Shown piece by piece: positions 34,983 through 36,855 of a stretch of 64,000 nucleotides of DNA; the stretch's first letter is position 1, and each line of letters opens with the position of its first letter. Under the pieces are notes generated by a model, which worked only from the letters and a program-made list of their open reading frames with translations, did not search any database and was not told where the DNA came from. Made by a program: the position numbers and the translations under genes. Source of the stretch: a virus; the IMG/VR virus record IMGVR_UViG_3300025874_000006, positions 1-64,000 of that record; one strand, 5' to 3'.

Positions 34983-35702
34983 TTATATGTCAAGAACATT
35001 TGCACTATTTTCTTCATTATATTGGGCAATAGTGTCGCGAAGTGGACGTACCCAGTTGTCACGATGTTCAATAAACACTTGAGGTTCGTGATTATCAACG
35101 GAGATAATTGTAACGAGTTGAGTGATGGGCATTCCAGTGCGTTCTTCCCACATGATGGAATATGCAGACTCTTGCATGAAGTAGTTCTTAATCCAGTCAA
35201 GACGTTTGGGTTTCATAGAAGTCTTGTAGTCGATGATAGACAATTTACCATCGAAGACGCCTACGCAATCCACACGGCCGGCAACACCCAGATGGGTAGA
35301 GTACAGTGGTGCTTCTTGAGCATGAACGACAGAAAGACGTTCGTCAAGGATTGGTTTAATCTTTAGGAAGGAATCTATTAGGTCAGGAGTACGTTTGGTC
35401 AACTTCTGTTCACCAGTGTCGATATCCATAGCCATGTACTTGTCATAGTCTGGATCGTTGTTGACATACTGTTCACAGATTTCGTGAACCGCAGTACCAC
35501 GCGTAGATGCGCGATAGGAGACACGGTTCGCTTCTTTCTCACCAACACGAGCACGCCATTTAGCAATGGAGTCGCGAGAGAGAATAGAAAGAACAGTAGT
35601 GATAGAAGGTAAGGTGATACCTTCGGGGGTTTCGTATTGACGACCAGTGTCCGTAGTTACGGCAGTCATCTCAGTCAGTTCCACGGGAACATGTTTAAAC
35701 AT
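34983..35702 (-). CDS. PD-(D/E)xK exonuclease (Cas4/RecB-like)
   Basis: PSITTVL, RGT.VH, E, AGRVDC, IDYKTS, YF.Q..AY. Confidence 0.9.
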   Translation of the reverse strand: MFKHVPVELTEMTAVTTDTGRQYETPEGITLPSITTVLSILSRDSIAKWRARVGEKEANRVSYRASTRGTAVHEICEQYVNNDPDYDKYMAMDIDTGEQKLTKRTPDLIDSFLKIKPILDERLSVVHAQEAPLYSTHLGVAGRVDCVGVFDGKLSIIDYKTSMKPKRLDWIKNYFMQESAYSIMWEERTGMPITQLVTIISVDNHEPQVFIEHRDNWVRPLRDTIAQYNEENSANVLDI

Positions 35703-35771
35703 AATATAATCCAATTCAATTTAATATACCCCTATTATAAAGGATTTGAATGGATTTGTCAATAGGTAAAT

Positions 35772-35797
35772 GTGACTAATTTTACTATATTGGTCAA
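35772..35797. promoter_or_regulatory. Operator copy 3 (GTGACT-N14-GGTCAA)
   Basis: 9 bp upstream of TTGACA at 35757-35762. Confidence 0.65.
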
Positions 35798-35801
35798 ATA
35801 A

Positions 35802-35887
35802 GAATCCCCACGAATACGGGGGCTCTTGTAGGGTACTTTATGTCTTGGAGAACCTTAACTTACTGCTCTGGCATTTTTCTCATGCAC
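35802..35887 (-). pseudogene. 3'-half remnant of the structured RNA at 36179-36371
   Basis: Aligns with 36179-36281; lacks one hairpin and the 5' pairing partner. Confidence 0.65.
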
Positions 35888-35985
35888 AAAAAAACCGCCC
35901 AAAAGCGGTTTCTTCGATGTTACTTGTCGGCTAAGCTTTCTACAGCGTCGTGAGACTGGAGGCCGTCCCAGAACTCTCACCAGAT
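35888..35985 (-). ncRNA. Putative ~98-nt small RNA with its own promoter and terminator
   Basis: TTGACT(36020-36015)-N17-TATAAT(35997-35992); GUGAGA/UCUCAC hairpin; terminator AAACCGC-UUUUGG-GCGGUUUUUUU; no ORF. Confidence 0.65.
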
Positions 35986-36016
35986 GCCCTAATTATAGGC
36001 TTTGATAGCAGACGAG

Positions 36017-36079
36017 TCAATCACCGCTGAGAATAGCGGCAGTCATTTCAGTCAAAGGTATAGGGTCGTGTGTAAACAT
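36017..36079 (-). pseudogene. Truncated copy of the exonuclease N-terminus (20 codons)
   Basis: MFTHDPIPLTEMTA versus MFKHVPVELTEMTA. Confidence 0.8.
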
Positions 36080-36148
36080 AATATAATCCAATTCAATTTA
36101 ATATACCCCTATTATAAAGGATTTGAATGGATTTGTCAAGGGTGATAG

Positions 36149-36174
36149 GTGACCAATTTAGGACTGTTGGTCAC
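36149..36174. promoter_or_regulatory. Operator copy 4 (GTGACC-N14-GGTCAC)
   Basis: 9 bp upstream of TTGACA at 36134-36139. Confidence 0.75.
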
Positions 36175-36178
36175 GTAA

Positions 36179-36371
36179 GAATCCCCACGAGTACGGGGCT
36201 CTTTATGGTACTCTTATGGTTTGGTGAACCTTAACTTGCGAGAGGTTTAATTCTCTGCTGCTTGGCATTTTTAACATGCACGTTTTGAGAGATCGCAGTT
36301 ATCAAGTTAGTGCGCAATGTTAGGCGCAATGTTCATCTCTTTTAGTACCGAGCCCCGTACAGTGGGGAAAT
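36179..36371 (-). ncRNA. Putative ~190-nt structured RNA directly 3' of tRNA-Ala
   Basis: Closing helix CCCCAC-U-GUACGGGGCUC / GAGCCCCGUAC-UC-GUGGGG plus nested helices. Confidence 0.7.
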
Positions 36372-36445
36372 TGGTGGAGGAACGGGGAATCGAACCCCGA
36401 TCGACGCCGTGCAAGGGCGCAGTAATCCCGTTATACTATTCCCCC
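36372..36445 (-). tRNA. tRNA-Ala(UGC)
   Basis: Cloverleaf, G3:U70, encoded CCA. Confidence 0.9.
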
Positions 36446-36855
36446 AATAATGCTATTACTTCTTCCTTGTATTTACTATGAAACATTTCATGATGATTTG
36501 GACATAATGGTATAAGGTTATTTATATCATTGTTATGATGGTTCTCATCCATATGATGAACCACCACAATCTTATCAAAACCACATATCCTACATTCTTT
36601 AGGATTATGTCGAAAACATAGAGTTCTATAGTTAGTAGCGTTTTTATTCCAATAGTCTTGTCTATTATTGGCACAACTTCTACTACAGAATTTAGATTCT
36701 GTCACTTTCTTGGTGAGTGCTCTACCGAATACGGTATATGATTCTCCGCACCTAACACAGTCTTTACTATGTTCTTTTTCTTCACCAAATCTTTTATTGT
36801 AAGCAGCTGTTTGTTTTTGTTTATACTCTTCAGTATGATAACGACCATTATTCAT
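36436..36855 (-). CDS. HNH homing endonuclease with zinc finger
   Basis: CVRC, FCSRSC, CRICG...VHHMD.NH.NN...NL..LCPNHH; late promoter at 36883-36890. Confidence 0.9.
   Translation of the reverse strand: MNNGRYHTEEYKQKQTAAYNKRFGEEKEHSKDCVRCGESYTVFGRALTKKVTESKFCSRSCANNRQDYWNKNATNYRTLCFRHNPKECRICGFDKIVVVHHMDENHHNNDINNLIPLCPNHHEMFHSKYKEEVIALLGE

Follow-up and report, generated by a model that had tools for sequence, protein, structure and literature searches.

A structured small RNA of bacterial origin in marine phages as a candidate RNA antitoxin decoy

Results

Gene order around the insertion

The window analysed here comprises 64,000 nucleotides (positions 1 to 64,000) of the IMG/VR virus record IMGVR_UViG_3300025874_000006, a 151-kb marine T4-like phage genome that is rich in tRNA genes and has phage C48C1 as its closest GenBank relative. 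The feature of interest is carried on the minus strand of the record, and unless a contig is named all coordinates below are minus-strand positions of the window. Reading 5' to 3', the region starts with a tRNA-Ala (36445-36372), followed by a conserved unit of ~190 nt with a small hairpin at its end, a sigma70 promoter matching the consensus at 12 of 12 positions (36139-36111), a leader, an ATG at 36079, the RNA element, a second copy of the end of the unit with another 12/12 promoter (35762-35734), and an intact dexA (35702-34983), whose identity as a dexA-type exonuclease was assigned by tblastn. The ~190-nt unit (36179-36371) directly follows the tRNA-Ala, ends in a small GC hairpin and is shared by related phage contigs and, in part, by C48C1. 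Copy B repeats its final ~90 nt, and the unit may itself be processed from the tRNA transcript as a stable RNA. On the other side of the tRNA, a 139-aa ORF (36436-36855) terminates within the 5' end of tRNA-Ala.

The element thus sits inside a duplication, as a preliminary description made from the letters of the window had already stated. Copy A (36037-36281) holds the end of the unit that follows tRNA-Ala, the consensus early promoter at 36139-36111, the leader and the first dexA codons, while copy B (35660-35887) holds the promoter at 35762-35734, which drives the intact dexA; the two are 83% identical over the 162-nt core of the family. Each copy therefore has one of the two perfect sigma70 promoters (36111-36139 and 35734-35762), and these are followed by identical leaders. 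The upstream one now drives only a chimeric stub of 20 codons and reads into the captured RNA.

Between the two copies, a captured segment of 169 nt (35873-36041) contains the 3' end of a MazF-like toxin gene, a complete RNA gene, and 15 nt past its terminator. The RNA gene has its own sigma70-type promoter (35992-36020; TTGACT-N17-TATAAT, 11/12 match), with the -35 box at 36020-36015, which in the window overlaps the toxin stop codon, and the -10 box at 35997-35992. The predicted RNA of ~98 nt (35888-35985) runs from a +1 near 35985 through a 5' hairpin (35950-35980; fold prediction) to the end of the U-run of an intrinsic terminator (35888-35912; stem ~35910-35893, U7 at 35894-35888). Promoter, hairpin and terminator are all as first described, and the accompanying claim that no AUG-started ORF is present agrees with the ORF list, in which no ATG frame was found and only a GTG frame of 41 codons appears; variation in helix length among homologues rules out a coding role for the segment.

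Origin of the inserted segment

The segment from 36041 to 35873 is 99.4% identical over 169 nt to the bacterial or mobile-element metagenome contig L101, in which a complete toxin-like ORF of 339 aa lies directly upstream of the RNA gene. This match identifies the 20-codon stub (36017-36079) as a chimera, in which the ~13 N-terminal codons of a dexA allele are joined to the last seven codons of the toxin gene and its stop (..AILSGD*), the same C-terminus that ends the toxin ORFs of L101 and of a further contig, L106. Two other origins had been considered for this stretch: the 3' end of a deleted dexA was ruled out, as the dexA C-terminus is unrelated, and the view of a leftover coding piece from some unknown phage gene gave way to the toxin-gene 3' end after the matches to L101 and L106. 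The earlier view of the RNA as either captured or evolved within the phage can accordingly be narrowed: it is a captured, self-contained RNA gene, and the near-identity to the donor-type locus of L101, which includes the end of the toxin gene, speaks against evolution in the phage. A scan of bacterial genomes also located the hairpin in two MAGs, one of Pseudomonas and one of Alcanivorax, and both copies come with a promoter and a terminator of their own. The Alcanivorax RNA begins ~40 nt past the stop of a 344-aa ORF, and again the stop codon overlaps the -35 box. Searches of GenBank phages with the element and its surroundings gave no match.

Homology to the phage relatives ends at 36037 and restarts at 35887, and these end points place the junctions at microhomologies of 5 nt (36041-36037) and ~15 nt (13/15 identical). 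The duplication follows from the right-hand microhomology lying upstream of the left-hand one in the phage. Copies A and B are each ~84% identical to alleles in other phages, and the 17% divergence between the flanking copies indicates that the history of the capture was not simple: the block may have arisen by a join of two genotypes, or one of the copies may have been replaced later. When 80 loci with close dexA homologues were compared, nearly all had a single upstream copy and no insert, the insert being absent from 78 of the 80. One other phage contig (recorded as L005, L088 and L098) has the same block of copy A, insert and copy B, with the insert 100% identical; the arrangement, though rare, must thus have been inherited and is no assembly artefact.

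Since the element lies between repeated promoter units in a plastic early region, it might be thought a cis-acting regulatory cassette of the phage itself, of the PeSL type, in which a promoter and a stem-loop shuffle genes in T4-like genomes. We regard this as extremely improbable: the element is present once in the 151-kb genome, it originates from a bacterial toxin locus, it is the RNA body and not the promoter that is conserved, and no further copies flanking variable ORFs were seen in the 80 related loci.

A conserved pseudoknotted fold

The RNA is modelled as an outer stem P1 (35980-35975 pairing with 35955-35950), an internal loop, an inner stem P2 (35971-35968 with 35959-35956) closed by a loop at 35967-35960, a conserved GAC(G/A) junction (35949-35946; GACG in the window), a helix P3 of variable length (35935-35946; 3 bp in the window, 4-6 bp in other alleles), and a pseudoknot in which the P2 loop pairs with the stretch following P3; its 3' strand lies at 35928-35932, and loop bases 35965-35962 pair with 35931-35928. 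Folded as a single sequence, the window RNA is unexceptional (z = -1.38), so the case that the structure is not due to chance is a comparative one. A covariance model (R1) matches 35924-35984 at 77.2 bits (E ~1e-25), the sole copy in the 151-kb genome, and homology to the diverged phage and bacterial copies begins at or just before the +1.

When 21 distinct sequences are aligned with the covariance model, 83.6% of the cells pair, against at most 47% when the partners are slid. Cells with changes on both sides number 49, compared with 18.4 +/- 3.4 after shuffling (0 of 500 shuffles reach 49), and the covariation score of 0.369 exceeds both the shuffles (0.192) and the slid controls (0.13 or less). 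Double-sided changes affect five of the six P1 pairs and three of the four P2 pairs; P1 is recovered independently in every sequence, and the arms of P3 differ wholly between alleles while their complementarity is maintained. R1 alignments were used since a second model with a narrow seed (R2) missed the diverged alleles; in these alignments three to five rows are shifted by one column within P1, so that the pair counts err on the conservative side.

Having been built on the nested helices, the alignment is biased towards them, while the pseudoknot lies outside the model and its counts are independent. Here, column pair 22-71 is GC in 16 and AU in 5 of the 21 sequences, and column pair 24-69 is CG in 17, UA in 3 and GC in 1, with neither pair ever unpaired; the alleles of Raoultella and Serratia are one compensated pseudoknot pair apart. 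Tested sequence by sequence the pseudoknot is not significant, as expected for helices of just 4-7 bp. On the 3' side of the pseudoknot (35927-35913), many alleles contain a semi-conserved and apparently single-stranded (A/U)GUAA(A/C)-like motif, which could be a recognition site or a substrate mimic for the toxin.

The fold bears on the architecture that was originally suggested, namely that of an Hfq-dependent trans-acting sRNA with a hairpin, a single-stranded seed and a terminator, which would regulate host mRNAs. The RNA does have its own promoter and a U-tailed intrinsic terminator, as such sRNAs do. However, the ~35-nt stretch that was taken to be weakly structured falls into P3 and the pseudoknot in the comparative model, and the proposed seed is thus base-paired, with covariation, which favours a structured protein-binding RNA over a base-pairing regulator. 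Moreover, conservation follows one neighbouring protein gene and not host lineage, and no Rfam family was matched: in release 15 the best local scores for the element are 13-21 bits against thresholds of 47-56, no family reaches its gathering threshold there, and in the window only tRNAs reach gathering scores, with no further family emerging at permissive thresholds. An Hfq-dependent regulator is, in our view, very unlikely.

The RNA accompanies a MazF-like protein in bacteria

We examined 18 complete toxin loci, with protein identities from 100% down to ~30%, on gamma- and betaproteobacterial chromosomes, on plasmids and in a P2-like prophage; they come from Alcanivorax, Azoarcus, Vibrio, Shewanella and metagenomes, and from plasmids of Pectobacterium (among them a 7-kb plasmid of Pectobacterium versatile, L122), Acinetobacter, Raoultella and Serratia. 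In all 18 the RNA lies ~20-110 nt downstream of the toxin-like gene on the same strand, and whole records hold a single RNA gene and a single protein gene, side by side. A sigma70-type promoter precedes the conserved RNA start by 6-9 nt in 19 of 20 tabulated sequences (the window included) with differing spacer sequences, and every bacterial locus has a terminator whose stem sequence is locus-specific. Promoter and terminator are thus kept in position but not in sequence, which argues that the RNA is an independent transcription unit. Among the alternatives offered at the outset, mimicry of a host RNA antitoxin therefore fits best, given that the bacterial RNA always follows a gene for a MazF-fold, toxin-like protein and that the window still keeps the last seven codons of that gene.

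The protein family is of uniform length (~300-350 aa) and forms 54 clusters at 90% identity, with 212 representatives at 50% among 1.84 billion proteins. Pfam returns a weak match to PemK_toxin (E 4.8e-4, below the gathering score), and homologues are labelled 'PemK/MazF family toxin' by NCBI. In the AlphaFold model (pLDDT 81), an N-terminal beta domain and a central domain are followed by a long C-terminal coiled coil, and the top 50 PDB matches found with Foldseek are all MazF-family toxins (probability 1.0, TM (target) 0.61-0.74), with matches to MazF structures at TM 0.66-0.74; judged by this model, the core of the protein has a MazF/PemK fold. A profile search of PDB sequences gave no MazF match from which catalytic residues could be placed. 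No model in PADLOC (2.0) or NCBIfam matches the protein, and a role in defence or toxicity is hence proposed from its fold and its neighbourhood.

This neighbourhood includes CBASS E1-E2, an IetA ATPase, a PDC-M68A-like nuclease, HipBA, an ICE, conjugation genes, transposases and plasmids, and the loci often lie in defence islands; in the P2-like prophage, the module occupies the variable accessory region beside the portal gene. The gene tables of the loci show no conserved partner gene for the protein, and no neighbour of the MazE/PemI type. Small HTH/XRE genes adjoin the toxin gene upstream in three loci (L112, L118 and L120; two divergent, one co-directional), where they could be local regulators or protein antitoxins. 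In the Shewanella algae P2-like prophage (L111:4033-4115), four tandem repeats of ~19 nt lie between the toxin stop and the RNA promoter, a feature that the other loci did not show. An E. coli genome search that used a plasmid-borne module as the query gave no match. Antisense control of the toxin start was also considered, and is ruled against by the lack of excess complementarity between the RNA and the toxin translation start, where duplex energies are no better than those of shuffles (z -1.6 to +1.4).

A strict linkage and a conserved pseudoknot show that RNA and protein are partners, but do not give the direction of the partnership. The RNA might then be a functional partner of the MazF-like protein other than an antitoxin, such as a scaffold, sensor, guide or activator, and the phage copies would titrate the protein into unproductive complexes, act as a substrate decoy or serve the phage itself; the single-stranded motif 3' of the pseudoknot could be a substrate-like site in this sense. 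We consider such a role unlikely, because an RNA that activates a defence would hardly be expected to be captured by many phages without the protein, and because a MazF-fold toxin with no conserved protein antitoxin beside it needs another restraint.

RNA-only copies in phages

The window phage is one of several that carry this RNA. A 32-nt hairpin probe matched seven viral contigs exactly, including L005, and a 24-nt probe matched 14 metagenome contigs; a degenerate-pattern rescan of IMG/VR gave no further phage copies. Altogether, nested pieces of the RNA gene are found in at least eight contexts in different types of phages. The stretch that the phage copies have in common is 81-169 nt long and 99-100% identical, whereas the flanks are unrelated. 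The pieces range from 35982-35902 (the shortest) to 36041-35873 (the longest), and all contain the folded core at 35982-35907. The carriers encode a portal and terminase (L083 and L085), a tail fibre (L084), thymidylate synthase, ligase and DnaB helicase (L097), or a tail sheath and portal (L107). Three distinct phage alleles can be told apart, namely the window type, the type of L099, L102 and L104, and that of L107, the last with compensatory changes in the outer stem. A homologue of the toxin protein was found neither in the genome of the window phage nor in IMG/VR or GenBank phages; the temperate P2-like prophage in Shewanella carries the full module of protein and RNA as cargo.

In L083 (3480-3870) and L097 (6680-7095), the carrier's own flanks are duplicated around the RNA (spacing ~210-294 and 344 nt), with short microhomologies at the junctions, which suggests a common mechanism of capture such as template switching or the joining of two genomes. 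Some of the pieces break up a small ORF and are without their promoter and/or terminator; in L084 (4640-4730, minus strand), for instance, the RNA core lies within a small phage ORF with neither promoter nor terminator, and splits a conserved basic motif (..NIHA | KRKRIK..). Some of these copies may be inert.

These observations raise the question of whether the RNA does anything in phages, or is a neutral scar of host DNA that entered by illegitimate recombination and spread among co-occurring phages by homologous recombination. The microhomology junctions and untidy flank duplications are what such a process would leave behind, as are the copies that disrupt ORFs or have no promoter or terminator, and the near-identity of the copies fits a recent spread; the window-type copies are indeed so similar that they give no signal of purifying selection within phages. 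Against this, the same folded core of ~76 nt is kept in all of the at least eight contexts despite their differing end points, the presence of at least three RNA alleles (the window, L099 and L107 types) points to repeated capture of one locus, and the adjacent toxin gene was never captured. We thus find a functionless scar quite unlikely.

Discussion

Taken together, the data are best explained by an undescribed, type III-like module for toxin-antitoxin control or abortive infection, in which the RNA serves as the antitoxin and from which phages have captured this RNA as an anti-defence decoy, and we hold this to be probably, though by no means securely, correct. The simplest reading of a MazF-fold protein that has no protein antitoxin and always occurs, on mobile and defence-rich DNA, with a structured and independently transcribed RNA is that of a toxin restrained by an RNA antitoxin, which resembles type III systems in logic though not in architecture; and lytic phages that repeatedly take the RNA alone, always with its core, behave as expected if it is an anti-defence decoy. 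Toxicity, the binding of RNA to protein, the trigger and expression in the phage are inferred.

We envisage that, in the bacterium, a constitutive promoter of its own would supply the RNA, which would bind the MazF-like RNase and keep it inactive. Infection would stop host transcription, the labile RNA would decay and the toxin would be freed. The phage probably gained the RNA gene alone from an L101-type locus of a host or mobile element, by illegitimate recombination at microhomologies. It would make the RNA early, with transcripts that start at the RNA's own sigma70 promoter and others that read through from the consensus early promoter, which lies 120 nt upstream; dexA retains a promoter copy of its own. 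The phage RNA could then keep the toxin neutralised during infection, acting as an RNA antitoxin decoy.

A broader proposal, for which we see about an even chance, is that the MazF-fold protein of ~340 aa and the monomeric, pseudoknotted sRNA downstream of it form an undescribed class of protein-RNA toxin-antitoxin or abortive-infection system, type III-like but with an independently transcribed, non-repetitive antitoxin, and that several lineages of wild marine phages have time and again taken over its RNA, without the protein, to counter this defence. Novelty is meant here with respect to Rfam 15, PADLOC 2.0, NCBIfam and the literature searched, which are the resources covered: none of them gave a match, and in the literature searched we found no description of a module made up of a MazF-like protein and an RNA.

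If this is true, the module would represent a new RNA-antitoxin architecture, in which a MazF-fold toxin is held by one structured sRNA. The family (~212 representative clusters) is found on plasmids, ICEs and prophages and in defence islands of Proteobacteria, and its members are named by NCBI as orphan type II toxins. The phage copies would likewise be natural, rather than laboratory-selected, evidence that lytic phages take RNA antitoxins from their hosts by microhomology-mediated recombination and spread them; they would also help to show which bacteria of the sampled community carry the module, and offer a ready-made inhibitor for experiments.

Comparison with known systems

A three-helix, pseudoknotted body that has no conserved single-stranded seed and is tied to one protein gene sets the module RNA apart from Hfq-dependent sRNAs, which it resembles in its size, its own promoter and its U-tailed intrinsic terminator. 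With PeSL cassettes, which Arbiol et al. reportedly described in 2010 as multi-copy promoter/stem-loop motifs of T4-type phages, the element has in common an early sigma70 promoter and a stem-loop in a hyperplastic, recombination-associated early region; it differs in being single-copy and of bacterial origin. MazEF and PemIK share the MazF fold of the protein core, but the module has no MazE/PemI-like gene upstream, its protein is ~340 aa long instead of ~110 aa, and its sole conserved partner is an RNA.

The closer parallels are with the type III toxin-antitoxin systems ToxIN, CptIN and TenpIN, where a toxin with a Kid/MazF-related RNase fold occurs with a non-coding RNA that forms a pseudoknot; in the module, a toxin-like gene and an RNA with a covarying pseudoknot are linked, and binding and inhibition of the protein by the RNA are predicted. 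A location on plasmids and in defence islands is also shared, and the known type III systems are abortive-infection defences. Their antitoxin, however, consists of tandem repeats of ~34-40 nt upstream of the toxin, in one operon with it and processed by it, whereas in the module a single RNA of ~100 nt lies downstream with its own promoter and terminator in 18 of 18 loci, with one model match per record. The module toxin is in addition twice as long as type III toxins, owing to the extra N-terminal domain and the coiled coil, and matches PemK and not ToxN models; it stands outside the ToxN/AbiQ, CptN and TenpN sequence families (the Pfam match to PemK_toxin is weak, and PADLOC and NCBIfam give none).

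For the proposed decoy, there is a precedent in phage PhiTE, which escapes ToxIN either with mimics of the RNA antitoxin or by a recombination event that hijacks ToxI (Blower et al. 2012, PMC3475682). There, as in the reading favoured here, a lytic myovirus has acquired by recombination a mimic or copy of an RNA antitoxin that would neutralise an abortive-infection toxin (PMC3475682). The PhiTE escapes arose under laboratory selection against a known system, whereas the copies described here come from marine phages in the wild, where they recur in genomes unrelated to one another, and correspond to an uncharacterised module.
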